From Neophaeotheca triangularis (Eukaryota), in assembly GCA_054600435.1 (NCBI GenBank), contig BAAIJX010000084.1, positions 1 through 63,779 of the forward strand: a stretch of DNA of 63,779 nucleotides, in the 5' to 3' direction. The first letter of the stretch is position 1. Every line of letters starts with the position of its first letter. The translations under genes were made by a program, and so were the position numbers. Below are positions 1 through 61,287 of this stretch, piece by piece. The notes below the pieces were generated by a model that was not told where the DNA came from, ran no database searches, and saw only the letters and a list, made by a program, of their open reading frames with translations.

Positions 1-206
<206 letters not shown>

Positions 207-223
207 AACCCCCCACTCCGCAG

Positions 224-873
224 ACCTAACAAAAGCCACCCAAGACCACCTCCACCCCCTCATCCACGTCGCCTTCATCCTCTCCATCCTCCTCCTAACC
301 GCCATACTCCTCCACACCAGCCTACGACAATGCGTGATGGGCAAAACCCTCTCCCCCCCGTCCAAAATCTGGCTCCCCCGCTCCCGCAACAACCCTCCCG
401 CCCAAACCCAAACCCAAGAACTACAACCCCTCCCCCAAAACGACCCCTATCCCACGCCCGAAACCCCCAACCCTCCACCCCCCGCTTACGGCAAATGGCG
501 AGGCTCCATAAGAGTAAGCCCACAAATCCTCGACTCGCACTGCCGCCGTCCCAACCCCACCAATCCCTCCAACTCCTCCAACGCTTTCACCCCCTGGCCC
601 CCCTCCGCCCCGCACCTCCAACCCCCCTCTTACACCCCCTCCCCCCTCCCTAATTCCGCCATCACCGACTTGCGAGCCCAGAGTCCCGAGCTCGCGCGCT
701 TGCCGCTTGCTAGCCGCGAGCGGGTTTTGGCTCTGGTCGCGGCTGAGGTTGCCGCGGGGAGGCCGGTGCCTGTTGTTGAGGCTGAGAACTTGGGTGTGGG
801 GGAGCGCGGGTTGGTGCGGGTTTTGGTTAGAGGGTGGAGGGAGGGTGGGGGGGTTTGGGAGGTGGGGTTTTAG
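224..873 (+). CDS. Last exon of a 5'-truncated hypothetical fungal membrane protein
   Basis: Frame is open from the acceptor at 223: LTKATQDHLHPLIHVAFILSILLLTAILLHTSLRQCVM (TM-like), then a Pro-rich part with PPPAYGKWRGSIRV. Same frame as ORF 334..873. Confidence 0.6.
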
Positions 874-1167
874 GGTTTTGCTGGGGTGGGGGGACGGGTG
901 GGGGTTTGGAGGATAGGGGAGGTGGGAGGGATGGGGGTTTGAGATTTGGAGGGGATGAGAGATGATGGGGGGGGGGAAACTGCTGGGGCGGGGTTTCTTT
1001 TACTTTTCTTTTTCGCCCTTCTGGTGGCCATTTTCGTTTTTTCCACTTGGGGCTGCAGGTGGTCCGGCGAGGCTGATGAGAACGCTTTCGTACTCCTCTT
1101 GCTTCTCGATACACTATCTATGGTATAGACCGCTTTCCTATCCAACAGGCGACTCCCGGAACCCCTC

Positions 1168-3738
1168 TCAAATCCCCTCCCCCTCCCCCTCAAGATACCC
1201 CGGCTTTCCCAACTCCCCACCCCCCTGCACAAGCACCCCCCTCAACTCCCCCTCAATCTCATCCCTCCGAGCCTTCCACTCCCCAACCCTGCTCAACCGC
1301 TCCTTAAGCTCCGCCAACTCCCTCTCAACCCCCAACTTCTCATCCGCGCTTCCAATCCTCAAAAACTCGTACTCATCCGCTCTAGCGCCTAAGCCGAGAG
1401 TCAGGGTGAATTCGTGGTATTTGCGCAGCGAGAAACGGGTCGAGGTTGTTATGAGAGCTAGTTGTAACACTTGGGTTAGTAACGGGGGTCAGCTGGGATG
1501 ATAGGTGGGGGCCAACTTACTGATGCCTTTGGCTTTGGCGGTCTCGTACAACAACCCCTCGACGTCGGAGCTCACGGCGCTGGTGCCCTCGTCTACGAAA
1601 GCGAAACGCGGTTCGTGGTACAGCAGCCGCGCGATGCCCATGCGTTGCTTCTCCCCGCCCGATAGCACGTCCTTCCACTCTTTACGAGTGTCCCAGCCGC
1701 CCTCGCGCGCTGTTAGGTAGCCGAGCTTCGCTTCTTCGAGGACGTTTTGCAGTTCGCGCTCGCTGCGGCCGGAGGCTTGGAAGTCTATGGCGGTGTGTGG
1801 GTAGATGACTTGGTCGCGGAGGGTGCCGGGGGAGAGGTAAGGGCGTTGGGGCAGGAACATGATGCCGTCTTGGCCTGTGTTGCGGGGTCGGGAAGTGAGA
1901 CCGCGGTAAGTGGGCCACAGACCTGCGACGATGCGAGAGACGGCGGATTTGCCAGCGCCGTTGGGGCCGGTTATGAGGAGGTGTTCACCCTTGGCGACGG
2001 AGAAGGTGAGGTCTTCAATCAGCTCTTCGCCGCCGAGGGGGTGGAGTGAGGGTGCGACGACGGGGACGTGTTCGAGGCGCACGCCGTCGTGGCCTTTGTG
2101 GAGAGTGCCTGCTACGTCGGCGAGGGAGTAGAGTTCGGGGTAGGCGTTGCGAGGGGTTGGGTAGGCGTTTGCGTGCACGCGGTGTAGGGTTGCGAGCAGT
2201 GTGTAGACGCGGCTGGTGTAACCGGCGAGTTCAGAAAGGTCTTTGATACTGTACATCATGCGGCCGCCGGCGTCGGCGAGGGAGAGCATGAGGCGTTTGT
2301 TGGTGATGAATTGTTGGGTGCGGCCTCCAGAGCGGTCGGAGACTTCTGCGCCACCGGCTGCGGAGGCTGACACGGCAGAGGGGACTTTCGCCGGTTCGCT
2401 GTTGGGTTGGATGAGGCCGCCCCAGGCTGGAAGGAAGACTGGGAGGGAGGTGATGAGGTAGCCGAACGCGGACCAGCTGTATTTCAAGACGAAGTCTTCC
2501 AGCATGTTGTACTTGACCTTGATGCGGTATATGCCTTCCATCCAGTGCTTGAGCTCTTTGAAGCCTTTGTCGAGGAGGACATGCTCGGTAGGTCCGCCGG
2601 CGTAGAAAGCGACTTCTTCTGCGTTGGCAATCAAACGAGCATGCAGTGCTCTGAATTCGCCTTCTTTCCGTCCTTCGACTGCTTTCATTTTGCCAAAAGG
2701 AGGAGACAACCGTCGCAGAAGAGTGGCTGTAGCGAAGTAGTTGAGCAGAAGAGCGCTCAAAGCCACCGGTCCAAGCGAACGATACAGCTGGAAGTTGAAA
2801 GTAACCAAATCGACCAACGGCTTTCCCAAAGACGAGTACAACGATGCTGCCGAATCACAAAAGAGCGTCAAGTCCTGCGTGATGAACTGATCGGCCCCTT
2901 GTCCAACTCCGCCATCCAGATTGTGCAGCTTATAATACGCCAGACTCGGGTTCAAGTACAAGTCGTGAATATACCTCGTCAATCTCGTCCTGAAAGCAAT
3001 ACTAATCTTCGACTGCAAGAACTTGATCATGCTGTTGGTGTAGCTGCTGATACCACCAATCGCTAGCCACTTGGCTATGCCCAGCAAAAAGGCCTTACCT
3101 TTGCCGGCTACCAAATCACGGACAATCTCGCCGTCCAGTCTCGCTACTACCAAGGAGAGGTATGTCCGGAGTAACAAGAATACGGCATGTGTGCCTAGCA
3201 ACCCCGTCTCTTTGGACGACCATCGCGGAATCATGATACTCATCAGGCTGAGGAACTGGTGAAGAAAAGCGAGGTTCAAGCCGGGCTTGACATTCGACGG
3301 CGGCGCCCCCAACGTCGTCGCATCCTGGCGCAACCCAGCTCTTCGAGGGGGATTGAGGAACAATCTCCTATGCGCGTCGAAAGTTGTGTTCTTTGTAGGG
3401 TAGATGGTCACGCGACTGGATTGGTCCTTGTAGGGCACGAAGATGGTTCGACTGCCGTCTTTGCCTCTCAGCCCGCTGTTGTGCCGTAATAGGCGTCGGC
3501 CGGTTTCGTCTTCTTTCCGGCGCTTGCTGTAGGCTTTGTACCCTCCATAGCTGGAGGCGATGATTGTCAGGGCGAGAGCTAGGGTGGAGAGGAGGCGGGT
3601 TGTTCGCTTTGGGAGGGGACTCTTGTGCTGTAGCTTGTCTAATCGGGCAGTAAGGCGGGCGTAAAAGTCATCGAAGAGGGCTGAGAAGCGGTCCGAGGAG
3701 GAGGAGGAGGAGGAGCGCAGGGTCGATTGCGCTGCCAT
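1168..3738 (-). CDS. PXA1: Peroxisomal ABC half-transporter (ABCD family, Pxa1-like), 2 exons
   Basis: ABC_membrane_2-type region, EAA-like NAEEVAFY, Walker A GPNGAGKS, LSGGEKQR, Walker B FVDEGTS. Intron 1520..1458 (GTAAGT...CTAAC...TAG) gives ...AKGITLITTSTRFSLRKYH... Confidence 0.93.
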
Positions 3739-15927: not shown

Positions 15928-17133
15928 TTAGACGAGAAATGTCCAGAATGAAGGGTAGACGAATTCATCTTCAAAGATACGCTGCACTTGCTCCAAGATG
16001 AATTTCTCGATTTTGCCGACGTTTTTGAGCACTTGCTTGCCATCTGCCGTCTGCCCGATTTCGGTCTCGATTTTGATATCTTCTAGTAGACCTCCGGGCC
16101 GTTTTTGGAACTTCTCGTCGCTTTGCTGGGTTTTGACGCCTTCCCCACTGGTGGCGGTGGAATGTTTCTCGTCTGTGGGAGAGTCGAGATCAGCAGTCTC
16201 GCCACCGATAAGGGCGTCGGCGTCTTCGGGGTTTAGGAAGCAGAGGTGGGCGCGGCGTTTGATGTAAGCGAGGACTGCGACGCCGTCGAAAGAGAGACCC
16301 GTGATGGTGAGTTTAAGCGGGATGCCGACGAAGCTGGGCATGGGGTAGTCGAGGAAGACTTCGGCCGTCATGCCGAGTTTGACGTCGCCCGAGTAGGAGA
16401 CGTGGGTGACGATTTGAATATCTTCTGGGCTTGGCTCATGGATGGAGTCGGCTTGTTCAGTGGAGTGGGAGGCCGGAGAGAGGGCGCGTTGGTGGTAGGA
16501 GGCGCTGTGGCTGTGGTCGCGGGATGGTGGCGGGGAGACGGAGGGAGGGCTTATGGAGTTGAGTGATTCGGAACGTTGGTAATTGCGGAATTCTGATGAA
16601 GCAGCCTGGGATGTGCCATTGGTATAACGGGCGCCGGCTACTGCTGCCAAAGGGGTGGCGGTGCCAGAGAGGCCTGCGGAGAGGGGGAGATGGAAGTATC
16701 CAAGGTTTGAACTCCCTCCTAGCATATTCGACTGGTGTCCACGAGATGGCGCTGGGCTGGCAGCCTGCGTTCTAGGGACTGGCACGGACGGTCGACGCCT
16801 GGAGCGGGCATCTTTGCTGCTTGGTGCAGTTGCGGCAGATGGCTTGACGGCTGCAGCGTCAGGGCGAGAAGAGTCATGTTGAAGAGCATGTTCGCTTTCG
16901 TCAACGCTGCTGTGATCGTCGTCGTAGAAGTCCGGCAGAGGGTCACAGATATCTTTAAGCACAATGTCCGGTGCTACGGAGCCAAAGTCAAAAGCGTGGA
17001 CCTTGACAGAGCGGATGATCTTGGGCAGGGTAATGTGTTGGAAACGGTCGTTGATGCTTTGGCGAATGGATTCGGCCAGAGCCTCGCCGTCGGGGCCTTG
17101 GGTGAGAGTCTGCCAATTGATATCGACCGACAT
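15928..17133 (-). CDS. MDM12: ERMES subunit Mdm12 (SMP domain)
   Basis: MSVDINW...IRSVKVHAFDFGSVAP...DICDPLPDFY, LDYPMPSFVGIPLKL, VLKNVGKIEKF, C-terminal VYPSFWTFLV. Confidence 0.95.
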   Translation of the reverse strand: MSVDINWQTLTQGPDGEALAESIRQSINDRFQHITLPKIIRSVKVHAFDFGSVAPDIVLKDICDPLPDFYDDDHSSVDESEHALQHDSSRPDAAAVKPSAATAPSSKDARSRRRPSVPVPRTQAASPAPSRGHQSNMLGGSSNLGYFHLPLSAGLSGTATPLAAVAGARYTNGTSQAASSEFRNYQRSESLNSISPPSVSPPPSRDHSHSASYHQRALSPASHSTEQADSIHEPSPEDIQIVTHVSYSGDVKLGMTAEVFLDYPMPSFVGIPLKLTITGLSFDGVAVLAYIKRRAHLCFLNPEDADALIGGETADLDSPTDEKHSTATSGEGVKTQQSDEKFQKRPGGLLEDIKIETEIGQTADGKQVLKNVGKIEKFILEQVQRIFEDEFVYPSFWTFLV

Positions 17134-17927
17134 GATGTGTTATTACGCCGTTGATTATGATATTATTTTTCTTACTTATTATAAGTTAGTAGCTTAAGGC
17201 AGTACTACAGCTCGTCGGAGTCGGAGTCGGACGTGTCGAACTTGTCGTCGTCGGGCCAGACGTGCGATTGGCCCGCAAGGCGTGGTCAGAAGTCAGTACT
17301 AGTACAGTTAGTAGTAGTAGTACAGTACCAGAGTACCTCCTAGTAGTAGTACCTAGTACCTACCGAGCTACCCACCTTATTAGCCTTCCTACTATCCTAC
17401 TATAAACAAATGGATGGCCTCGGAAGACGAACTGTTGGTCTGACCACTCGTCATCTCCGAACTTGGACGAATAATCATACCATACCTACATACATACCTA
17501 CTACTTCCTCCCTCCCTCCCTCCTACCTAGGTACGTACCTAACGCATTTTATTGATTGACAACAGCCTTCACTAGCACGCCCGTCCAAAAGCCAGGCCCA
17601 AAACGGTCGTCGTGTGGAACGTCGTTCCTTGTCATTAATAACCATCAACCATCATTTATTTATTAGCGCGAGACAAACAACAAAAAGGCCCCGACCCGTG
17701 GACGGGACCGTTGGCTGCGTGTCATCATGAGTACGACTACGACTGATCACCTCAGCTTCCATCTGTGCTTGCTATGCCCACCCTGGCTGGCCTGGCACCC
17801 ACACCACCACCACCACCCGACACGCCCGTGGGCCGTAGCACCTCAGCCGTCACCGGCTCGGGCCATGGCATTGACAGGGCGCACCACTTGCCCACTGCCA
17901 CACCCATGTCCGGCCGCAAGCAAGGAA

Positions 17928-17938
17928 AATAATAATAA

Positions 17939-17998
<60 letters not shown>
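17928..17998. repeat. (AAT)n microsatellite
   Basis: About 23 AAT units with one interruption. Confidence 0.95.
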
Positions 17999-18000
<2 letters not shown>

Positions 18001-30275: not shown

Positions 30276-32960
30276 TTACTCCTTAGCCATCTCCCGACAA
30301 AGCGCCAACCTAACTAACATAACCAACTCCTTACCAGTACCCTTGACCCCATGCACCCCCACAAAGCCCTTGCGCCAGTCCCACCCCTTGCTGCCCGGTT
30401 GCTTCCGACCCAGCTCATAAGCCTCCAGACTCTGACTGAGAAGCGCCGCATTCCGCTCAAAAATATACGCAGGCCCTTGCTCCAAGTACTCGACGGCGGG
30501 CATGAGATGGGCGAGGACGGCTTCGCGGTTGAAGACGCGGCGGCGGTCGTTGAGAAGCGGCAGTGTCTCGCCGAGGAGCGCGAGCAAGCAGTCGACGGGG
30601 ATGAGCGAGCGCACAGCTGGGTCGAAGAGCCCGCCGTGGATGCTGTCCGCGGCGCTCGAGAGCAGTATCATAAGTTTTTCGCCCATGGCGCCGAGGGTTT
30701 GGAGATTTTGCTGGTTCGCGGAGGCGGAGTCGCGCAGTTCGTAAAATTCTTTGAGCATTGCGCAGCCGGCTAGGCGGGTTGAGAGGTTCTGGGTGCCGTC
30801 TTGGAACTGGGAGAGGAGGGCGTGCTGGTTGTCGGCGGTGTTAAGGGTTCGCATGCTCTCGAGGCGGGAGAGGGAGGCGCCCAATGCGGTGCCGCTCGAC
30901 TCGGTGATGCAGCGGAATGTTAGCGTGTTGGTGATTTGGTCGAGTTTGGCCCAGGCGTTAGCGTAGGAGTAGTAGAGCATGGCGGAGCAGTAGTCCTCGC
31001 CTACGGAGGCGACTTGGTCGGCGTAGCGCTCGCAGACAGCGCGGGCGTGGTCGTGGAGATTGGCGCGGTTGCAGATGGCCATGACTTGGTTGACTTGGTC
31101 GTCGTTTTCCAGAGAGACGCTGTTGAGAACGTTGGAGATGTGTCTTTCTGCTAGAGACGGATCCGCAAGTCGAGAGAGGACTAATATCGCGAGTTGCCAG
31201 CCGCTTTCTGTAGACGAGTTCGTTTCTTGCTGTCTTGACAGGGTACTCGCTAGCGTAGCGAGCATACGGTCACGACTGAGACCTTTGGACTTCTGCGACG
31301 GCGGTGCGCCATACGACAGCACCCCGAGGTCTTGAGTAGAGAAACCGTGCTGCAGTAAGTCTTGACTTTCTGCATCCTCGTAGGGCAACCAACCGCACAG
31401 TGTTGCGACCTCGATCAGAACCGTACAGACGCCGACGCTCCAACATTGAAGCATGTAGACGACGCTCTCGATGTCATCTACCATCGCACAAGCGAGTCCG
31501 ACTTGCACAGGGTCCATAGTGTCGACACTGAACACCGCATCCTCTGGCTCATTGGTAACGCGAGCGAAAGCGGTGCGCATGCGGCGCTTATAAGCTGGCA
31601 TTGGCGCAACATCCACTTCTCTCGTGTGACGATGATTGGCGATTGCTTTCCGAGCTTGAGGTCCTGCGCTCGCTGTGTACGGCTCTGCGGTATCTCCATC
31701 CCACCACACTGTGCAGAAGATCGTTGCCTCGAGCCAGTCCTGAGAAGGTAGCACAATCTCGTCCACTTGGCCGAGGACCATTCCGTAGACCACTTTCAGA
31801 TTCTCATAGATGCTCCAGGGCACCCTTGAAGCTGCTCTGCGCATCGAGTCTGCAAAACCGGGCTCACTGCCACGGCTTGCGCCGAACACATTGCTACGCC
31901 TGCCGATCCCACTTTCCTCTCCATCAAAACCTGGGTCTTCAACGAGAGCCTCGAGGTCTTCTCTCGCCCGGCGCACGTGCTGCCGGAACATGGCCCATTC
32001 AGCTCCAACCACGTCCCAGTTCTGATTCCGAGCAGCAGGACACCTTGCAAGCACTTCCACGCACTGCGTAGCCACTTCGCGCGTTGTATCCAACTGCTGA
32101 TCCGCGTAGCCTTCTACATCCGCCCCGTCGTCGATCGCAGTGACAGCCTCCTCCCACCCCGCATTGTCCAAAAGCTCTTCAACACGTTCGAACCTTCCCC
32201 GCAGCAGAGATCCATATACGCAATCCCAAAAATTGTCATGATGTGAAGGAGTCGGATCGTTGTTGATGATGGTCTCGTAGTCGTCGCCGTACGGTACGTG
32301 GTTCTCGTTGATCCAGGTCATGAGGGAGGCCGGCAGAGACGCAGAAGCTGCGGCGAAAGGTTCGTGTAGCTGGAGCATGAAACTCGCAAGGTATCCAGCT
32401 TTTGCGACTGGCGCATCTGAAGCAGGTCCAATCGAGCCGCCTTTCGTGCTTAGCCCACCATGACGTCTCCTCTGATCGCGCATCCATTGCATGCCCTCGC
32501 GGTTCGCTCCACGGGCAGATGAAGCTCCTGTGCCCCTTGATTGCGGCCGCGCAAGCTTTGTCACTAAACGCGCAGCTGCTGTCACTACAGGGTCTTCATC
32601 TCCAGACTGCGGTCCTTCCTTTGAAACCAGATCCCGGCCAATAGCTCCCATCCCTGAACTCTGTGGCAATGCATCGGCCCCCATGATCATGTCGTCGTCT
32701 CCGTCCATGTCCATTTCACTGGCTTCTTGCGGCGGGCTGCTGGGCAAGCCGAAGCCTTTTATTGACCGGTTTTGGTTGAATGTGTTCGCGGATGGTATGG
32801 CAGAGCTACCAAAGGCAGATTTCGGTGGCTGGCCAGCCGGTGTGAACGATTTGTGCGTAAGATGCGAAGGGGGTGGGCCTGCGGGGGTGGTAGAGGGTTG
32901 GGAAAAGCGGAAGTTGTGCCCATTGGGTGTCGACGGAGGCTCTTGCGCGAAGAACGCCAT
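30276..32960 (-). CDS. NUP85: Nucleoporin Nup85
   Basis: 894-aa ORF with STTPAGPPPS/FTPAGQPP, FWDCVYGSLLRG, W..FR, SRVPWSIYENL, DWLEATIFCTVWWDG, GGLFDP, WDWRKG, RLALCREMA, all typical of Pezizomycotina Nup85. Confidence 0.85.
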   Translation of the reverse strand: MAFFAQEPPSTPNGHNFRFSQPSTTPAGPPPSHLTHKSFTPAGQPPKSAFGSSAIPSANTFNQNRSIKGFGLPSSPPQEASEMDMDGDDDMIMGADALPQSSGMGAIGRDLVSKEGPQSGDEDPVVTAAARLVTKLARPQSRGTGASSARGANREGMQWMRDQRRRHGGLSTKGGSIGPASDAPVAKAGYLASFMLQLHEPFAAASASLPASLMTWINENHVPYGDDYETIINNDPTPSHHDNFWDCVYGSLLRGRFERVEELLDNAGWEEAVTAIDDGADVEGYADQQLDTTREVATQCVEVLARCPAARNQNWDVVGAEWAMFRQHVRRAREDLEALVEDPGFDGEESGIGRRSNVFGASRGSEPGFADSMRRAASRVPWSIYENLKVVYGMVLGQVDEIVLPSQDWLEATIFCTVWWDGDTAEPYTASAGPQARKAIANHRHTREVDVAPMPAYKRRMRTAFARVTNEPEDAVFSVDTMDPVQVGLACAMVDDIESVVYMLQCWSVGVCTVLIEVATLCGWLPYEDAESQDLLQHGFSTQDLGVLSYGAPPSQKSKGLSRDRMLATLASTLSRQQETNSSTESGWQLAILVLSRLADPSLAERHISNVLNSVSLENDDQVNQVMAICNRANLHDHARAVCERYADQVASVGEDYCSAMLYYSYANAWAKLDQITNTLTFRCITESSGTALGASLSRLESMRTLNTADNQHALLSQFQDGTQNLSTRLAGCAMLKEFYELRDSASANQQNLQTLGAMGEKLMILLSSAADSIHGGLFDPAVRSLIPVDCLLALLGETLPLLNDRRRVFNREAVLAHLMPAVEYLEQGPAYIFERNAALLSQSLEAYELGRKQPGSKGWDWRKGFVGVHGVKGTGKELVMLVRLALCREMAKE

Positions 32961-33676
32961 AGCTAGGACGTGCGCTCAGGTCTACAACCGATATTATTGA
33001 GACTATGGTTAAGCAAGTCGGGCGGTGGTGCAGGCGCGCGGAATTTTGCTTGTAACAAGAAGTTGGAGATGCCAAACATTGAACCGCAAGCAGAGAAGAA
33101 GTCGAGTCGCGAGAGCTTAGGTACGGCTTGGCATTCGCGCAGTCACGTGTCGTGTCTGTCGCCGTGGTCTGTCTATGTGTCGATGAGAATGTTAATGGGA
33201 AGCTATTAGGATATTCTACTGATTACACTATATCTACATGAAAATCAGCAGTGGCTTTTCGTTGCGAAGGTTTTCAATCCCTCGTCCACTCGTCCCGTTT
33301 TAGAACCAAGCTCAAGTACCATGATATAACGCTCAACACCTTCTCCGAATCACATTGCTTGTCGCTCGATCCTTTGCAACAGAACATTGGTCTTTCGAGA
33401 GGCGCAGGGTCCTCTCATGGCTCTTCTCGACGTTCGCCCCAGGGCGCATGCCTTGCATATCAATACCCAGCGATATAGCCTCCGCGAAAATGGAAGAAGG
33501 GTGCTGGCTGTTCTGTTACATTCTTTGACGACCGAAAGAGCAAAACCTTAAAGCTCAAACGTGGGCAAAGGGTTCATCCCCACAACGCAATAATTGTCCT
33601 GGCATCAAAGCAGCATGTCCGCAATTGCAGCCAGCATTAAGGGTATCTGTTCTGCAGCTCCACCACAGCAAGCACC

Positions 33677-34615
33677 TCACTCCGGCCGCATCTTCCCCCT
33701 CCTCTTCCGCATCTCCTCGACCTTCCTCCTATCCTCCTCAAATCCCCTAACCAAACTCCTCGCCTCATCCTTCTTCTTCTCTCGCACCTGAAACCTATAG
33801 AAATCTGGCATAAGCCTCTTCTCGGCTCTTTTCCGAAACTCGGCCTCCTTCGCCTTCGCCTCCTCCTCCCGCCCAGGACCCGCGCGCCCTCCTCTCGTAA
33901 CAGTGATGAAACCGTCCTCGTCCGGCTCGCTGCGCTGCCTCGCGAGCTGCTTGCTGCGAGCAGCCTCCCGAGCAGCGAAAGCCGTCATGTAAGCGTCGAC
34001 GCTGGACTGGAGTGCAGCGTGCGAGGGGTAACGGAGAGCGTGATGGGCTTTGTAGCGCGCGAGCCCGAGCGGCGGGACTCTGCTGTCCACGCTCTCGCCG
34101 GCCCAGGGAATTTTTCGCCCGGTTTTGGCAGCTTTGCGCGCTTCACGAAGCGCCAATTCCGCGCTCGCGGTATCTATGAAAGTGACGACGGCCGTGCTGC
34201 CGCTGCGGTGAACTTCGCGATCCCAAGTCTCCGGCAGCAGGCCTACTTCTGGCGCTTCGCTCGTGGTATCATCTTCCGCTCCGCGCTTTCTCTTTTTGCC
34301 CTTTTTGGCTGGTGCGACGGGCGCGCTGATGCCTTTGCCCACTCGTGCGCTTTCGAAAGCCACATTCTCTATGCGCGCGCCGCCAAGATTTTCTGCGAAG
34401 AGCGAGCGGAAATGGTGTTCGGTGGAGTCTATGGGGACGTTTACGGCGAAGACTTCTCGGGGTGTGTCTTCTGTTGGGATTTTTGGCGCATTCGCGCGGA
34501 GGTAAAGGTAATGCGTGGAAGGTCTTGAAACGGACGGCGAGGTCGGGAGCTGTAGTGGCACCACGGTGAACTCGTTGACGGCGTTAGGAATCTTTGACTT
34601 AGATTTGGGTACCAT
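33677..34615 (-). CDS. RRP7: Ribosomal RNA-processing protein 7
   Basis: THYLYLR, FAVNVPIDSTE, LQSSVDAYM, PDEDGFITVTRGGR, DFYRFQVREKKK, FEEDRRKVEEM. ATG at 34615. Confidence 0.92.
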   Translation of the reverse strand: MVPKSKSKIPNAVNEFTVVPLQLPTSPSVSRPSTHYLYLRANAPKIPTEDTPREVFAVNVPIDSTEHHFRSLFAENLGGARIENVAFESARVGKGISAPVAPAKKGKKRKRGAEDDTTSEAPEVGLLPETWDREVHRSGSTAVVTFIDTASAELALREARKAAKTGRKIPWAGESVDSRVPPLGLARYKAHHALRYPSHAALQSSVDAYMTAFAAREAARSKQLARQRSEPDEDGFITVTRGGRAGPGREEEAKAKEAEFRKRAEKRLMPDFYRFQVREKKKDEARSLVRGFEEDRRKVEEMRKRRGKMRPE

Positions 34616-34927
34616 GGTGGGCTCTAATCTGTCATGTCTGGCGAAATGTCTACAATCAATCTTCAATCTTCACTTTTTACTTTTGAGATGAAGTCGGAGT
34701 TCAAGAGAAAGCACGCTAGTCTACTTCGGGTAACAACATCAAGGATGCTCCCAGACTAATCAAACCGCTACAGGTAACAAGGCCGTGAGTTTTGGGTCTT
34801 ATGGTTATTGAGGAATAAACAAGCGCAAATGCAAATGCTACAAAAAAGCAATCCTTCCCTTGCAGCGATCGAAAGCAAAAGCAGAACGGGTATATAGCGA
34901 ACACATAACAAAACCTCGCGCGATCTA

Positions 34928-35028
34928 TTCTCAGTTTCAAGTAGGGTGGGATTCAGCGGGGGCTTGGCGGATTTGCGCAGCAAAAAACGCGCTTTTTGCC
35001 TGAATGTGCCCATATCCATTGAATAGAC
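34928..35028 (+). repeat. Left terminal inverted repeat (101 bp)
   Basis: TTCTCAGTTTCAAGTAGGGTGGGATTCAGCGGGGGCTTGG...CCATTGAATAGAC is the reverse complement of 39008..39108. Confidence 0.95.
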
Positions 35029-35149
35029 TCTAATACTTCTTACATCCATATCATATGCTCGTCGTTGTTAGAGGTGTTGTTCCTATACCATAGGGTCAGG
35101 GTTTGTGCGCACGTAGGGTCGCTACCGACGTTCTACGACCCTCTACACT

Positions 35150-36151
35150 ATGGCGCCCTTAGATTCAGACGACCATGCAGTCATTGAGGGTATGCTCCTA
35201 GATAGTTGTTCGCCTTTAGATATTGTCAACACCTTGGTACCACTGAAAAGAGGCTCTCGCTCTACTATATACTGTGCTACCTCATACTAGAAGGACTATA
35301 GTAGTACTCGGCTAATTACTAACACTAAAAAAGGACTAAGGCCTCGAATTGAGCCTCTAATGCGTACCCTTTTGATCGATACCCTTACTCGTAAGAGCAC
35401 ATATTGGCTTGACGAGCTCCAGGCCTTGCTGCTTAACGAATTTAGAGCCTAGATTAGTGTCCCTACTATTAGTAGGTGCCTCTATGAGGTCGATTTCACG
35501 CATAAGGTCGTCACTCGAGTGGTAGAGCAACGCAACGAGGTATTAAGAGCTGAGTTTGCCTCTAAGCTGTCTACTATTGAGCCGCACCAATTAGTCTACG
35601 TAGACGAAGCGAGTGCTAGCGAGAAGGTGACTTATCGCCGCCGCGGTTGGTCACCAAAAGGGGTCGCTGCTGTCGACAAGAGACACCTCCATTCCAGTCC
35701 TAGATTCAGTGTCTTGCCGGCCTATACTATAGAAGGTTACCTAGATGAACCCCTTATTATCGAGGGCTCAATCGACGGTACCCTATTCGAGACATGGTTG
35801 CTTAAGACTGTCTTACCGCAAACAACTCCTTACCCTAGCCCACGGTCCGTTATAATACTCGACAATTGCTCCACTCATAACCGCACAACGGTGCGGGAGT
35901 ACTGTTAACTACATGGAGTTAAGGCCATGTTCTTACCGCTATATTCACCAGACTACAACCTAATTGAACTAAGCTTCTACCTCCTAAAGCAGTGGCTCCG
36001 TCGGCATGCTGATCAACTACCTATCTATAGCGACCCTGAGTACAAGGAGAAGTTCAGAAGCATGCTCTTTATAGCATGTGCGGCCTAGGGGTATGGTGTT
36101 GATCATGAGAACCTCTTTCGGAGGTGTGGTGTGAATTTTGATAACCACTAG
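35150..36151 (+). pseudogene. IS630/Tc1-like DD34E transposase (DDE_3 type), inactivated
   Basis: One 333-codon frame with 4 internal TAG/TAA. HTH-like YWLDELQ...ISVPTISRCL; catalytic VYVDEA, IILDNCSTH and YSPDYNLIE, with 34 residues between the second D and E. Confidence 0.92.
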
Positions 36152-36795
36152 TATTGTTTGGCCTATAACACGGTCAATTTTGGACCAAACTGGTTCATTT
36201 TTGGTTCATAAGAAAGCAGTTGACTCTATGAATCGATTGGGAGCCGTTTTAAACGAAAGCAAAAATACTAGGGGTGTCAAGGAGTCGTTGAAGTTGAGGG
36301 TAAATGGCTATATTAGTAGATAAGCCCATAATCTACCTTTCTAGTTAGCTAACTTTAAACTGCTGCATCACCACTAATATACATTCGTTTTGCTTCATTG
36401 TAACACTAAATGATACCTAATGCATTGCTCTATCGATCCTATATACCACATTTAGAATGTATAGTGAATTGTAGGTGTAATGGGGTTGTCAGTCTTGAAG
36501 GTATGAAGACGGATGTTTTAAAGCAGAGCTCCGATAGGCTCGGCTGCTCCCGATCCAATCAGACCAGCTGAGTTTTGACTTCATGTGATGGCTAGTTTAG
36601 GGTACTACCCGAAGTAGTATATTGCGATTGGCCACTACTACATCAATACTTAACGAAATCAAACGAAAATAAGTCGAGTGAGATCGTACGGAGGTATAGA
36701 ACAATTGTTGTCATATAAAAGAAACACCATACCTATCCAATAACCAACGCCAGCCCTAAACGCTACACCAAATGGGATGTTAATATGATCCACTA

Positions 36796-38976
36796 TCATA
36801 GCTCGTTTTCTTCGTTGTCTGACAGTAGATCATCGATGCCGTTAGCCTCTATATACCTCTTGAACTCACCACGGTGTTTAGTGAACAAGCGCCTTATGCC
36901 AATCGCAGGAATGACCTCCTTAAGTGCCTCTTGTTCAGTAGTAAGTATACTTAAGGTCCACTAACCGGCCACTAGACCAACCTCTACTACGTCAATAGGC
37001 TCTATATATGCAGGTATCTTGCGGCGGAGCCATTCGCAGAAGGCCCTCAATGTAGCGTTAGGTCTATAGCCTTCTGAATTGATTGGCGAGCTACCTTTAG
37101 GAGGTGACGAGCGGTTATGTCTATAACCGCCGCCTCCAGTATGCGGTGGTGGGTACCTATGCTGCGGAGGGTAATAATAGGGTGGCGGGGCCTGTGGTAG
37201 CGGTTGTGCGTATATTATTTGAGGCGTTGGAGTAGGTGTCGGAGCCGGTGATTTAGTAAGCCTCTTACTCCCCCTAGCCTTTAATTGATCAGTCTCTTTG
37301 GCTGCTCTCTATGTAATCATAAGGGCAATAAGCGACTCCGGCATGGCTTCAACGGTAGCCTAGCTTGTGTCGTATAGGTAGCGCCATTTATTGACAATAT
37401 TGCTCGTGATCTCGTAGTGTTCGTTGCTGAACTCATAACAGCCAATTACCCCTATGCCTACACGGTTCCTACACCTCTTGTCGTTACACCTATACCTCTG
37501 AACTACCTCCGTCTAAAAGCCGGCCTTCTTAACGTTCTCCCGCGAAAGAGCCTGCGTTGATGTCTCCCTACCTCTCCTAGGGGGAGCTAGCTCTAATGGC
37601 GTCGATACCGGTAGTGGCGGTAGTGTTAGCATAGGAGCGGCTTCAGATATTAGCGCATAGTCAGACGATGTGTTAGGCACAACACCGTCCTCGTAGTTTG
37701 AGAAGGCCTATGCGACCTCTACCGTGACTACGTACTTGGGGTCTTACTCCTTGAAGTGGTTAGCCAAGTGGTATATATTCCTAGACTAGTAGAAGCCGTT
37801 CTTGAAAGTCACCTGCTTACGGACCCCCTTATTACGCGTTGAAGACACCAGCATAACAGCATCACGGCTAACCTCCTAATAGGCTATACCGACCTTCTTT
37901 GCATACTCCTCGGCTACTGTTAGAGCGTCTATGACCATTACGCTGGCCTCTAGTGCACTGTCATCGAATAGGCGTGTCTGAGAATATACTACCCTGGTAT
38001 TGAAGGTTGCAACCTAGGTAATAGGGTATTTTGTAGGCTCTATAGGGGGCGGTGTCTTCTTCGGCGGCAGTGTCTTTTTAGACCGCTTGGACGGTCTTGG
38101 AGTCTCATCGTCAATATCATAAGGGGTTTCCTGGCTGTCTCCTACCGGATCTCCGGCAACACTCGAATCAGTGTTAATTGACACCGGATCTAGACGAGGA
38201 AGCTCCTTAGACTTGCCCTTCCTTGGAGTGTGTGACTTGGTAGGTATAGGTGGCTTTAAAGGTCGGTCCGAGGCTAGTTTACTAGACTTTAAGGAAGAGC
38301 GTTTTGTGAGCTTAATGGTTGGACGAGGCCGCTCTGTCTTGTTAGACTAAGAAGCCTTTCTCGCTTTACCCTCTTTAACAGCCTGTTCCTTCGCACGAGC
38401 TATAGTAAGGACCTTGTCCCCTACTATTTCATGTAGGTGCTCGGTATTCTCAGTAGCAAAACGGACCCTTAGTGTGTCGGCCGTAGGTTGACTGGGAAAA
38501 ACTCCTTCGGCTTTAGGGGGCATAGTAGTCCTTGACCTTGTTATGCGTACTAGCGGCTCCGTTAGCTTAGGAGTAGCAATAGCAAGCTCCTGGGGACCCT
38601 CTTAAGTCTACTCTTACTCCTGAGGTTAGTTGTGTATCTACTCTTGTTCTGCATGCCGCTCCATATCCCTTTAAAGGGCCAATTCAGCTAGATCTTAGTC
38701 CATGAATCGTTCGTATTACGTCTCTGTTTCGAACGTTAGTAGCTCGTATGAGGCTACTGAAACTGACGAAGAACACTAAGGCCTAGGAGGAGCTGAATCT
38801 GCGTTGATATCGAAGTCTATGGACTATGACCAAGGGGGTAATGGCAACTCGGAGTCGCTGATATGGTCCGTCCTAGGTAGAGATGACGGTATAGACGGTG
38901 AATCGATGCTCTGCGTGCTCGTACTGGCCGGAGCACCTGCACATAGGTACCTAATGTTGTAGTCTGCGTCTGACAT
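36796..38976 (-). pseudogene. Second transposon gene (ORF2, 726 codons, function unknown), inactivated by point mutations
   Basis: ATG 38976 to TGA 36796 in one frame (2181 nt) with no frameshift and about 20 internal stops, all TAA/TAG. Protein-like translation throughout. Confidence 0.82.
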
Positions 38977-39007
38977 CTAATATGAACATGATATTGATGA
39001 TATATGG

Positions 39008-39108
39008 GTCTATTCAATGGATATGGGCACATTCGGGCAAAAAGCGCGTTTTTTGCTGCGCAAATCCGCCAAGCCCCCGCTGAATCCCACCCTACTTGAA
39101 ACTGAGAA
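39008..39108 (-). repeat. Right terminal inverted repeat (101 bp)
   Basis: Reverse complement of 34928..35028 with one C/T difference. Confidence 0.95.
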
Positions 39109-39185
39109 TAGGTGCGAAGGAATAGCGAAAAGACTCCATTGACCGCGTTCCTCACCAAAAAGCAAAAACCCTCTCACAAGAGATC

Positions 39186-40547
39186 TCATACTTTGTCCGG
39201 GTCGTTGATGCCGCCGGTGGTGATGATGTAGGTCGCTTCTTTTTCCGGACAGTCTACGCATGGTTGTCAGCATATACCTTGCGACGCAACGAGAATCATC
39301 TATCTGGTGATCGGCACTAACCTGGCGAATCCTGCACCTTGGCCACTCGCTCCTCCCCTCTACCCTTCCGCAACAGGATCCTAGTTGTCGAAGCGTGCGC
39401 CAGGACATGGCCACCGATAGGCTTACGCCCGTCAACGCTGGCGAAAAGAGCGCTCGCGCCTGGGTCCGACTGGACTTGATTGGTAATGAAGACGGTGATG
39501 TTGAACTCCTCAGCCATTTGGATGATCTTGCGCAGATGTTGGCCGAGTTTCCCTTGGCGTTCGTTGAGTTCACCGCGGCCGGAGAAGTCGGTGCGGAACA
39601 GTGCGCAGATGCTGTCGATGACGAGCAGTCGGTACTCGCCGGTTGCGAAGGGCTCGGAGAGTGAATGGAGGCCCTCGTGTTGTTGTTCGCTGTTGAAAGG
39701 GCGGGCGATTAGCATGTTGTCGAGGGCGGCTTCGGGGTCCACTGGGAAGGCGTTAGTACTTTGATGAGGTCTTGACGTTGGCAGCGGCTTACAGCCAAAA
39801 CGCTCTGCAATCTGGACGATCCTTTCGGGACGATAAGTACCCTCGGCATCTGGAACTCTGGTCAGCCTTTCCACTGTCAGAATGTGACAGGAGGAAGCTC
39901 ACCAATCCAAGCGACCTTGCCGTTTGCGCCGCCCAAATCCTTGGGCAGTTGTGCGATAACAGCCAATGTATGTGCCAACTGCGTCTTCCCGCATCGAAAT
40001 TCGCCGAAGACTTCATTGATACTGCCACTCTCGAACCCACTGTTGAGTGTCAGTATTGGCAAGGGGTCACATCCATCGGAAATACACTGACCCGTTCAAG
40101 ATAGCATCCCACTGCGAACTACTAGTACTCAGTCGGAAGCACTTCTTGCGGTCCTGCTGCACTTCGAGGCCAGTCTTGAACCCGGCACCATGCGGCAAGC
40201 ACTTTCTTACGGCCTCTTTGATCTTGTCGACTTTGACGTCGGAGAGGCCCCTGATCTTGCAGAGAGTCCTCGTTGTTGCGGCTGAGACCGACTGTGGTGA
40301 TTGAGGGTAAGTAGTTGGACATTGGTCGTTGTGGCTGCAGATGTGGGGATCTTCACCATCACTGTGTGGTATCCAGCGAGTTTGATTTTGGCAATGTCGG
40401 CAGCGCCTATGCCATGGGCTTGAATGTCGTCAATGTCGACGATGTTGGCGTTCTCCTGCGGCAATGTCAGTGGCTCGTGCGAGGCAACATTACCCGTGCC
40501 TGCGTCCTTACCTCTTCGCCATCGCTGCTGGCCACGGAGCCAGGCAT
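39186..40547 (-). CDS. DMC1: Meiotic recombinase Dmc1, 7 exons
   Basis: [23 protein letters not shown], Walker [80 protein letters not shown]. The [15 protein letters not shown] motifs favour Dmc1 over Rad51. Confidence 0.93.
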
Positions 40548-41582
40548 CTTGAACTGGGCCTATGACTGCCGCACTTGATCGGCCAAGGCTGAGATCTTGA
40601 GCTTGCTGAGGGATCGATGAAATGTTCAAATGCGACTGGTACAAAGAAGCAGAGAAGAACGGCATGTCGATGGGAATGTAGGCGGTTTTGATAATTCGAA
40701 GGCGAGCTCCATCGTAGGCAACCATCTCATTTTGGGAAGGAGCTGCTGCTGTTTTGGGAAGGGACAAAGTGGATACAGCTGGTTTTCGACTTCATCTCTT
40801 GGCGGTCATCGAAGAGAGGCTTTCACCCCAGCGGAGCTCAATACTTTCTACAAGGGAGGCAGCAAGGACATCGTGCTCGCATTAGCATCTAAGTAGCCTG
40901 CTGTACCTCTTGCTGAGGCGTTTTTAGTCTTTTAGGTGCCACCAACCTCCAAAACGCGCACTTGAAAATCTTCAGAGGTCTGCAAGAAACGCGACCAACT
41001 CACACAATGAAGAGGAGAATCGACGCCGCCCTCACTTACTCTGTTACATGGCGTTAAAATGCCACCAAAAGCTGAAGAGGAACATGATAGTACACTCCTT
41101 GAGATGCAGATACAAACGATTGTTCCCACTGCGCCAGTTGAATGCAAGCCAATGGGTGTTCTTTCAGTGTAGCCACCGCACTTGTAATGAGATTTGTAAT
41201 ATGTTTTGGGTTCATTTTGACAGCACGCCCAACGTCCGGCCGTCTCCCACTTGCGACCACTTCCAGCCCACTTTGCCGCTACCTTCCTTTCTCTCTCGAC
41301 TTTTTGCAGCATGCCAAAGATCTTTAGGTGCAAGGTCTAGTTGACCGCGCAAAAGTCTCGCTTCGTTCGCTTCGGTCTTCCAAGGTGTAGGTGTGTGATG
41401 TTGGGGTTTCATAATGGTCGTGAGGAAACTTTTGGTCGTTGTTCGTAACCGTTTTTGAACGCCCGGTGTTTATGTGAAGGGGTGAAGTTGGGTTGTTCGG
41501 AATCGGGTTGTGAGGAGCAAGAAGTCGAGGCGACTGAGAATCACCCCGCATTTCTGCATCCGGAATTGGTGCTATATCGGCT

Positions 41583-42468
41583 CTAAGCGATAATGGGAGC
41601 TGGCGCAACCGGGGCGTTCTGGACGTTGGTCGCGTCAGGGTTGGGAACCGCGGCGGGGGTGATGTTCGGCTCGCCGTTGACGGGGATCTGAGTGCCAGCC
41701 TCGGCAAGAGCCTGAGGGCACTCCCTGCTGATGTGGCCGGTCTCGCCGCACCTGTAGCAGGTCTTGCCAGCGGTGTTGAGAGGACCACCGTTGGGGGCGG
41801 TGCAGTCGCGGGAGATGTGACCAAGCTTGCCGCAGGCGTAGCACTTCATGGCCTGAGCCTGGCAGTCGCGGGCGAAGTGGTTAGGTCCACCGCACTTGTA
41901 GCAGGTAGCAGCGCGGTTGCCGCCTTGGGGGAAACCGCCGCGGCCAAAACCGCCCTGGAAACCGCCTCTAGGGGGACCAGCGGCACCACGACCCATGGGA
42001 GGGCCACCCATGCCTGGGGCTGGGCAGTTGCGCTTTGTTCGTTAGCTTTTGCGCAAAGAGCGGAACACGTTTCAAGTGAGTCTTACAGCCAAGTGACCCA
42101 TTTGACCGCACGAGTAGCAGCGGCCGCCTGGAGCACCGCCGCTTAGACGAAGAGTGGGGCAGTCAGCCTGAACGTGACCGAGACCCTGGCAGTGGTAGCA
42201 TTGCTTGGCTGGATATCTTGTTAGGTCCATCTTAAGTCGTCTCCCGACAGGTGTTCAGGCTTACTCTCAGTGGTCCTAGGGGACGGGCAGTTGTTGCTCT
42301 CGTGGCCTTCATCTCGGTTAACTATTATCCTCATGGGATGCGCTCTCCCTTGGAAATCTTACCCGGCTGCTTGCAGTTGTAGCACAGACGCTCAGTGCTG
42401 GAGCAAACCTCGGCGTAGTGGCCAACGTTGCCGCACTTGTAGCATGCTCTGCGCGCGAGGGAAGACAT
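41583..42468 (-). CDS. GIS2: CCHC zinc-knuckle RNA-binding protein (Gis2/Byr3/CNBP), multi-exon
   Basis: MSSLARRACYKCGNVGHYAEVC, CYNCKQPG, CYHCQGLGHVQADC, RGG-rich linker, CYKCGGPNHFARDC, CYACGKLGHISRDC, CYRCGETGHISREC. Confidence 0.92.
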
Positions 42469-59715: not shown

Positions 59716-61287
59716 AAATCAGCATCTTCCCGACGATCAACCTCTTCGCAACGAGACGAGCGGAGGAGCGGCGCTATTATGGCGATTTTGGACATCAACC
59801 GCGAAAGGGCATCACCCTCTTCCAGAGGCGTTGGCTATATCGTGACATCCCTTATCTCAGCACACGAGAGCGGACTCCCACTCGCGATAGATGTACCGCG
59901 GAATTTCCTCGGGCGTTCAAGGAGCAAGGGCAAGATACCAAGCCGTCTACCTCTCCTAGCACATGCACTTGTGGGACGAGAGTCTTTGGACACAGCGATA
60001 GCCACGGGCATAACTTGCATGTGCATTGCTGTCCATGGCGCAGGGGGCCCTGCTTGTTTTCACGCTGGATACCCTTTTCTTTTTCTTTTATATACCTAGT
60101 TGATGGGTAGTCTAGCTCGCTACCTTTCTTTCCACTACACGTCCAATGTAAGAATCTGCTGGTTTTCCATGATGCTCTCAACGACGGAAATTGGCATCCA
60201 AGTATGCCACGGCTTGCCACGGCGTGCGATGTCGATGCGACGCAGTGTTGTGAAGCGCTAACTGCGGGCTGCGAGGGCGGCTCACAAGAGAGGTACTGTA
60301 CTAAAATGATGTACTTTTGCTTGGTATTCTCCTGCTCGAGCACTTGGATACACGCCCAGTACCTAGAGGGTGAATGCTGAGGAGAATAACAAGAACGAGG
60401 TGCTCTGCCGGCGATGCCGAGACGGGCTGAATCGTTGCTTCAATACTCCCATTCCCGCGCGGCTCATCAAGCTGTAGCGAATGGTACTGACGGTAGGTGC
60501 GGTAGCTTGGGGGTACGGAAATACCTACAACATAGGCTAAGGGAGTAGTGAGATTGACCTTTCAACGGTTTTTCCGTAGCTAGGTACCTCCCGGTACATC
60601 CTTGGGGTATGTGAACGTGCCTAGGTGGATTTGTACCTCTCTCCTCGCTCGCACAAGTGGCATAACTTAATAGTAGAGGGGAAGAAAAAGAAAAGTAAAT
60701 CTCGCAGCGAGCAACGTGGTCGCTAGTCAGGCAAAAGTGTAAATCGTCCAAAAAGTCTAATTAAGGTAGGGTAGGGTAAGGTAGCGAGCTAGCTGGTGAC
60801 CATGGCGACGATCTGTATATGAGATGAGGTGGATCTGCATCTGGGTATGACTTGTTTTCATCGTCGAGTAAAGAGTAGTTGGCTACCTTGTGCTTTATTA
60901 TACTACGGTACCTTACCTACTAGTGATATCCCTATGCGGAGGTAGTGCTTTGCCTCGTTCTAACTAATAACTTGGCTCTCGGGTCTTGTGAGTTCCGGGA
61001 ATGGGAACCGAGATGCCCGTCCCCCAAGATTTGATTTGATGGCGGCGGCGGCTGATGATGATGGCCGGTGATCATCAGATGACAGGGCATGATGCATGCT
61101 CCCGTCCTCTCCACAGCGTACCCAGGTGGTCTTCCGCTTGTTAGGGCCGTTGGTTGGTTGCTTGCCGGTAGAGTAGAGTATGTATGTTGTGTACATACTA
61201 TAGGGAAGAGGGAGTCTCCTACTGCTTCCATGTCTTCCAAGCTTGTCTCCTATCTGCCATCATCATCATCGTCAATCATCAATCATC

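Follow-up and report, generated by a model that had tools for sequence, protein, structure and literature searches.

The window analysed here comprises positions 1 to 63,779 of contig BAAIJX010000084.1 from Neophaeotheca triangularis (63,779 nucleotides, forward strand). An element of 4181 bp is found at window positions 34928-39108, with TA on both flanks. It carries a gene for an IS630/Tc1-type transposase and a second gene, called here ORF2 (open reading frame 2). The two genes are convergent, one starting near each end of the element. The features are listed below with the basis of their assignment; TIR stands for terminal inverted repeat.

34926..34927, no strand: TA, left copy of the target-site duplication (read in the sequence)
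34928..35028, plus strand: left TIR, 101 nt (100 of 101 positions agree with the right arm)
35150..36151, plus strand: IS630/Tc1-type DD34E transposase pseudogene, 333 codons (frame reading, Pfam DDE_3, NCBIfam)
36152..36795, no strand: AT-rich spacer of 644 bp, 39% G+C, without a long frame (between the two stop codons)
36796..38976, minus strand: ORF2 pseudogene, 726 codons plus stop (single frame, HMMER relatives)
39008..39108, minus strand: right TIR, 101 nt (repeat search, arm comparison)
39109..39110, no strand: TA, right copy of the target-site duplication (read in the sequence)

Organization, mutation pattern and insertion of the element

The TIRs, counted from ends 34928 and 39108, differ at a single position in 101 nt (T/C, position 74) and their likeness ends beyond position 101. 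The repeat search delimits the arms at 34925-35035 and 39001-39111 (111 nt, 96% complementary), which form the strongest inverted repeat across the whole window. A terminal word of 32 nt has exactly two occurrences in the window, whereas none is expected from 100 shuffles. The boundaries of the original prediction, 101-bp TIRs and a TA duplication enclosing 4181 bp, were reproduced, with one TIR mismatch. When folded as single-stranded DNA the left TIR is no more stable than its shuffles (z 0.23). A scan for promoters and terminators gave values at shuffle level, the models being bacterial and uninformative for a eukaryote. Note that a 312-codon frame (33677-34615, minus strand) starts ~310 bp from the insertion point at 34927, which places the element upstream of this frame, in what is likely its promoter region.

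The transposase frame contains four in-frame stops (three TAG, one TAA). Its translation matches Pfam DDE_3 (E 2.1e-24; 86.5 bits, cut-off 28.6) and NCBIfam NF033545, the IS630 family transposase (112.2 bits, cut-off 100), and residues D152, D238 and E273 give the DD34E spacing, as anticipated for a DD34E transposase of about 1 kb. The match to HTH_33 reaches 14.8 bits, under its cut-off of 25. By analogy to Tc1 and IS630, the transposase would bind the TIRs through its amino terminal helix-turn-helix region, cut the element out and paste it into TA sites.

The ORF2 frame extends from 38976 to 36799 on the minus strand, with its stop codon at 36796-98. Preceded by an in-frame stop, the ATG is found 32 bp inward from the right TIR's inner edge. 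Exactly 20 in-frame stops interrupt the frame, each of them TAA or TAG and none TGA. These data bear out the view that a second, single-frame convergent gene of 726 codons, masked by about 20 TAA/TAG stops, starts 32 bp inside the right TIR.

Both genes were destroyed by C-to-T/G-to-A mutation of the type produced by repeat-induced point mutation (RIP), and the TIRs were left intact. RIP is an established mechanism with a preference for CpA. The corresponding indices, given as TpA/ApT followed by (CpA+TpG)/(ApC+GpT), are:

Transposase: 1.53; 0.84
ORF2: 1.68; 0.79
Whole element: 1.40; 0.87
5-kb flanks: 0.66-0.71; 1.23-1.24
TIRs: 0.43; 2.3-2.5

The stops of the two genes together are TAA or TAG in 24 of 24 cases, TGA being absent. 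These numbers and the indices are therefore a signature of RIP with CpA preference. The indices of transposase and ORF2 are alike, in line with the same mutation pattern that had been attributed to both genes. Two of the ORF2 stops, X397 and X488 (both TAG), are at alignment columns where homologues mostly have W. The TIRs are free of the RIP signature although the interior (35050-38980) is heavily mutated. One possible reading of the clean TIRs is that RIP spares the edges of repeats.

The insertion was assessed by alignment of assemblies of runs X1, X2 and X3 to window positions 32000-42000 at 80% likeness or more. An X2 contig is collinear with the window on either side of the element and measures 1256 nt between points that are 5450 nt apart in the window (33754 to 39205). 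The length deficit is 4194 nt, compared with 4183 nt for the element plus one TA, and the intervals neighbouring it differ by merely 6 and 5 nt. The related genome represented by X2 therefore lacks approximately one element length at the orthologous site, which identifies the window element as an insertion. The exact empty site is not readable in X2 because the flanks are only ~83-89% alike. X2 and X3 contain next to none of the element's words and no piece that aligns to it at 80% likeness. Note that X2 and X3, which carry the same organism label, match the flanking genes (33679-41916) at ~83-89% only; the label seems to span diverged genomes.

In X1, an assembly with every sampled word of the element and the possible source of the window DNA, the element interior forms a separate contig of 4095 nt bounded by collapsed TIRs. 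At a likeness of 80% or above, this genome contains a single full copy plus an end fragment of 297 bp, a count that more diverged relics (below 80%) would escape. The fragment (record 4) matches window positions 34926-35224 and then diverges into unrelated sequence. It presents the same TA and TIR end in a different flank, and the left boundary is therefore fixed independently. Reading from the window letter to the X1 letter, 35 of the 41 differences are C>T or G>A, with T>C and A>G both absent. In every transition within the 297 nt common to the two copies it is the fragment that has the mutated base, never the window copy. The presence in one genome of a partial duplicate that differs by transitions is a feature of RIP relics. 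Region 34928-39108 is very probably an inactivated insertion of a two-gene IS630/Tc1/mariner cut-and-paste transposon in a genome of the filamentous ascomycete type.

The ORF2 family and its pairing with a transposase

An HMMER search of 1.84 billion representative proteins retrieved at least 20 ORF2 relatives at E≤1e-3, five of them at E≤1e-10. The best one (E 8.7e-35) spans query residues 299-719. Twenty relatives is a lower bound because the query was a RIP-damaged copy. The matches have a length of 155-751 residues and none is fused to a transposase. The named relatives are "hypothetical proteins" of Aureobasidium species, Fulvia fulva, Acidomyces richmondensis and Geoglossum simile, and the others were found in Logan, ENA and JGI assemblies, the majority on contigs of 1-6 kb. 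No relative was found in the scanned viral contigs or prokaryote genomes. Residues C497, C502, C513, H520 and W531 (window numbering) are invariant in 13 of the 13 aligned members, the window copy included. ORF2 has no match in Pfam or NCBIfam and the PDB sequence search gave nothing meaningful. A few weak Pfam matches among the 13 members (Tet_JBP in one of them, E 0.0085; Ribosomal_60s on acidic tails) were rejected as noise.

JGI metagenome contigs were scanned with one ORF2-family member (P0006), and the contig that encodes it was found (L001, 3145 bp). It has an intact ORF2 homologue (16..1953, plus strand, 645 residues, open to the contig start) and a convergent, intact transposase frame of 355 residues (3058..1991, minus strand), the stop codons of the two genes being 37 bp apart. 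The L001 transposase matches DDE_3 (E 7.1e-28), HTH_33 (29.3 bits, cut-off 25) and NF033545 (131 bits); its PDB sequence search was empty. Compared to the window proteins, the L001 transposase is 36% identical (E 3e-71) and its ORF2 21% identical (E 1e-17) across three conserved modules. There is no detectable nucleotide similarity between L001 and the window element, and L001 has no RIP signature. No TIRs are present on it, as the contig stops short of the element ends. Note that the window spacer 36152-36795, whose L001 equivalent has only 37 bp, is maybe a degraded third part of the element or a later insertion.

ORF2 is the relic of a real gene that belongs to an unnamed family of Pezizomycotina, also found in metagenomes. 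This follows from its HMMER relatives (down to E 8.7e-35), the conserved Cys and His columns, the confident folded domains of the family (see below) and the intact homologue in L001. The possibility that ORF2 is no gene at all, its long frame being a chance product of RIP-skewed composition, would fit the absence of matches in Pfam, NCBIfam and PDB. It would also fit the empty word-based protein searches with ORF2 and with family alignment A1, which were probably dominated by low-complexity words and are not evidence of absence. The likelihood of a chance frame is negligible: it is refuted by the HMMER family, the invariant residues and the intact L001 homologue.

The occurrence of the same tail-to-tail pair at 36% and 21% identity shows that the pairing is old and not a chance capture. 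The original prediction had ORF2 as a constitutive part of the element rather than a captured host gene, a view supported by the intact L001 pair. It had also called for ORF2 homologues tail-to-tail with DDE_3 transposases inside TIRs. The tail-to-tail pair was found once outside the window, in L001, and TIRs were seen at the window only. Three distant IS630-like loci in viral contigs (L002-L004) have no ORF2-like sequence (0/3, tblastn), and the partner is therefore specific to a fungal lineage.

ORF2 could also be a host gene captured by one element, or by two independently, without a role in the transposon life cycle. Some of its relatives are indeed ordinary "hypothetical proteins" on long annotated fungal contigs, and the lack of an ORF2 neighbour at the three viral loci indicates that ORF2 is not general to IS630-like elements. 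This origin is nevertheless improbable. The same gene is found in the same orientation and at the same end of two elements with such diverged transposases and ORF2s, two independent captures with identical layout are unlikely, and the L001 ORF2 frame is intact across 645 codons. A single ancient capture, if kept since then, would make ORF2 a constitutive component all the same.

A nested or composite structure, in which ORF2 belongs to another, unrecognised mobile element inserted into a one-gene Tc1-like element, is suggested by the 644-bp AT-rich frameless stretch between the genes. Against it, only one inverted repeat of at least 20 nt lies between 34000 and 40000 besides the TIRs, and this 20-nt, 80% pair (36680/37490) does not enclose ORF2. 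L001 has the same arrangement with the stop codons merely 37 bp apart. The nested structure is very unlikely. Comparison of the two loci thus indicates that ORF2 is an old, co-inherited component of the transposon lineage.

Several observations weigh against this assignment. ORF2 is seen linked to a transposase at no more than two loci, the window and L001, the remaining homologues being seen as proteins, and a position inside TIRs is seen for the window only. The 644-bp window spacer is absent from L001. Some relatives are encoded by long contigs (Fulvia fulva, 4.07 Mb; Geoglossum, 258 kb) and could be host or domesticated genes. The ORF2 stops other than X397 and X488 are mostly in variable alignment columns.

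Predicted domains and possible role of ORF2

The closest intact relative of ORF2 (P0003) was modelled with AlphaFold2 from a 21-sequence alignment and the model was mapped onto window ORF2. It features three confident domains separated by disordered linkers. Their positions, with the predicted local distance difference test score abbreviated pLDDT, are:

37693..38028, minus strand: PB1-like beta-grasp domain, ORF2 residues 317-428 (P0003 model residues 41-152)
37273..37560, minus strand: Cys3His module, ORF2 residues 473-568 (invariant columns in alignments A1, A3 and A4)
36826..37077, minus strand: five-helix SAM-like domain, ORF2 residues 634-717 (P0003 model residues 372-458, pLDDT ~96)

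The PB1-like domain has the order beta-beta-alpha-beta-beta-alpha-beta. VIA-align relates it to PB1 domains with Z 5.2-6.6 (model residues 37-153), and Foldseek gives weak beta-grasp rows (E 0.01 or worse). The Cys3His module is built of a helix, Cys-x4-Cys, a hairpin, the His and two helices. Modelled alone from L001 it reaches pLDDT 95, and no fold match was found for it (Foldseek best E 1.6; VIA best Z 4.8). For the carboxyl terminal domain, SAM domains take most of the top-50 VIA-align rows (Z 5.2-7.3) over its whole length (model residues 373-453), and the ESM Atlas gives a weak SAM lead (0.79). No Pfam SAM or PB1 match was obtained in the 13 ORF2 members. The PB1 and SAM fold names are leads because the Z values may reflect a common arrangement only.

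The ORF2-family sequences have a basic amino terminus rich in Ser, Pro and Lys, an acidic carboxyl terminus and, ahead of the last domain, a linker rich in Pro, Gln and Tyr. In several members this linker (residues ~590-612 in window ORF2) has PPxY-like words, such as the PPPY of the window copy, P0004, P0013 and P0021, which may serve in ligase binding or just reflect composition.

PB1 and SAM domains are protein-protein interaction and polymerisation modules. A possible, still tentative role of ORF2 is that of a self-associating, non-catalytic nuclear accessory protein that assists or regulates transposition by binding DNA, chromatin or the transposase. The PB1-like and SAM-like modules would mediate self-association, and the Cys3His module together with the basic disordered amino terminus would bind DNA, chromatin or the transposase. 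ORF2 might in this way help or regulate assembly of the transpososome, akin to the Myb-like partner of PIF/Harbinger elements. When the two L001 proteins were submitted together to complex prediction, the score was 0.01 against a mark of 0.34, which counts neither for nor against an interaction. Two further points temper this proposal: the PB1-like and SAM-like fold matches are middling (Z<8), and linkage and models say nothing of the need for ORF2 or of its action in transposition.

A more far-reaching proposal, similarly doubtful, is that ORF2 defines a new accessory class that combines a PB1-like/SAM-like polymerising scaffold with a Cys3His module of unseen fold, and that the pair is the first obligate two-component system of IS630/Tc1/mariner. 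ORF2 would then be required to assemble, target or protect the transpososome, like the Myb-like partner in Harbinger. The retention of a second, unrelated gene while the transposase diverged to 36% identity suggests that this gene does something for the element. With this pair, the idea of accessory factors in the IS630/Tc1/mariner superfamily becomes testable. ORF2, whose family is unnamed and whose Cys3His domain lacks a solved-fold match, is also a candidate new protein module. Annotation pipelines built around a single open reading frame per element miss two-gene elements of this kind or split them, and RIP also hides ORF2 from programs that search for such frames.

Comparison with known transposons and other features of the window

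IS630/Tc1/mariner elements are the textbook minimal transposon, composed of two TIRs and one transposase that is sufficient in vitro. The canonical IS630/Tc1 (DD34E) elements, of which impala is a fungal example, have ~1.3-2.5 kb and a single transposase gene. The window element shares with the superfamily the TA duplication, the TIRs, the DDE_3/IS630-type transposase and the DD34E motif; the DDE families matched in Pfam by the transposases are DDE_3 and DDE_1 only. Canonical elements also have an amino terminal helix-turn-helix, for which HTH_33 is above cut-off in L001 and below it in the window copy. The element departs from the canonical single-gene layout by the ORF2 conserved in window and L001. 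It has 4.2 kb, 101-nt TIRs and a second gene of 645-726 codons on the opposite strand.

A transposase accompanied by a non-catalytic partner gene within one TIR pair is reminiscent of PIF/Harbinger elements. In the latter the transposase is of the DDE_Tnp_4 type, the partner is Myb/SANT-like and the target duplication is 3 bp long. Assignment to PIF/Harbinger is ruled out by the DDE_3/IS630 transposase, by the TA duplication and by the absence of Myb/SANT in the 13 ORF2 members (0/13; Pfam, E≤0.1).

The statement of the original prediction that Tc1-type elements encode the transposase only holds as the canonical rule, to which passages of two papers provide fungal exceptions, Dici (PMC13469147) and Tc1-OP1 (PMC9977792). 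Dici1 and Dici2 are described there as fungal elements of ~4 kb with a TA duplication, DD34E and three coding sequences (CDSs). These code for a protein of 143-146 residues of no known function, a transposase of 473-477 residues and a degenerate second transposase (PMC13469147). Dici-family transposases have 432-478 residues. The authors of that work regard the presence of several CDSs as unusual in this superfamily; the other fungal elements that they retrieved, 22 in number, have a mean of 1.7 kb and all but one a single transposase (PMC13469147). Dici elements thus resemble the present one in being fungal, in DD34E, TA duplication and size (~4 kb) and in having more than one CDS (PMC13469147). 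They are set apart, by their description in these passages, from an element with two genes, transposases of 333/355 residues and a 645-726-residue partner with PB1-like, Cys3His and SAM-like domains. The three-CDS layout of Dici, as described, was rejected for this element: neither ORF2 nor its L001 homologue matches IS630 or DDE.

Tc1-OP1 of Ogataea is likewise a fungal Tc1 element with a large extra module of no known function (PMC9977792). As described there, this module is a Ser/Pro-rich "domainX" of 681 residues fused in frame to the transposase, giving a single protein of 1155 residues with DD40E spacing (PMC9977792). In the present element the partner is a separate convergent gene and the spacing is DD34E; ORF2 is set apart from domainX on the basis of this description. 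The gene pair is not described in the literature searched, which included passages of PMC5751038, PMC2836289 and PMC11544213, with Repbase, Dfam and the Dici supplements lying outside the search.

Elsewhere in the window, bins 17001-18000 and 60001-61000 (TpA/ApT 1.19 and 1.35; G+C 0.485 and 0.495) are mildly RIP-like and may hold degraded repeats. Positions 1-220 consist of long A runs interrupted by few other bases. The segment 56357-56839 is composed of three imperfect direct copies (62-85% alike) with a unit of ~170-210 bp, corresponding to repeat families D2, D3 and D5.

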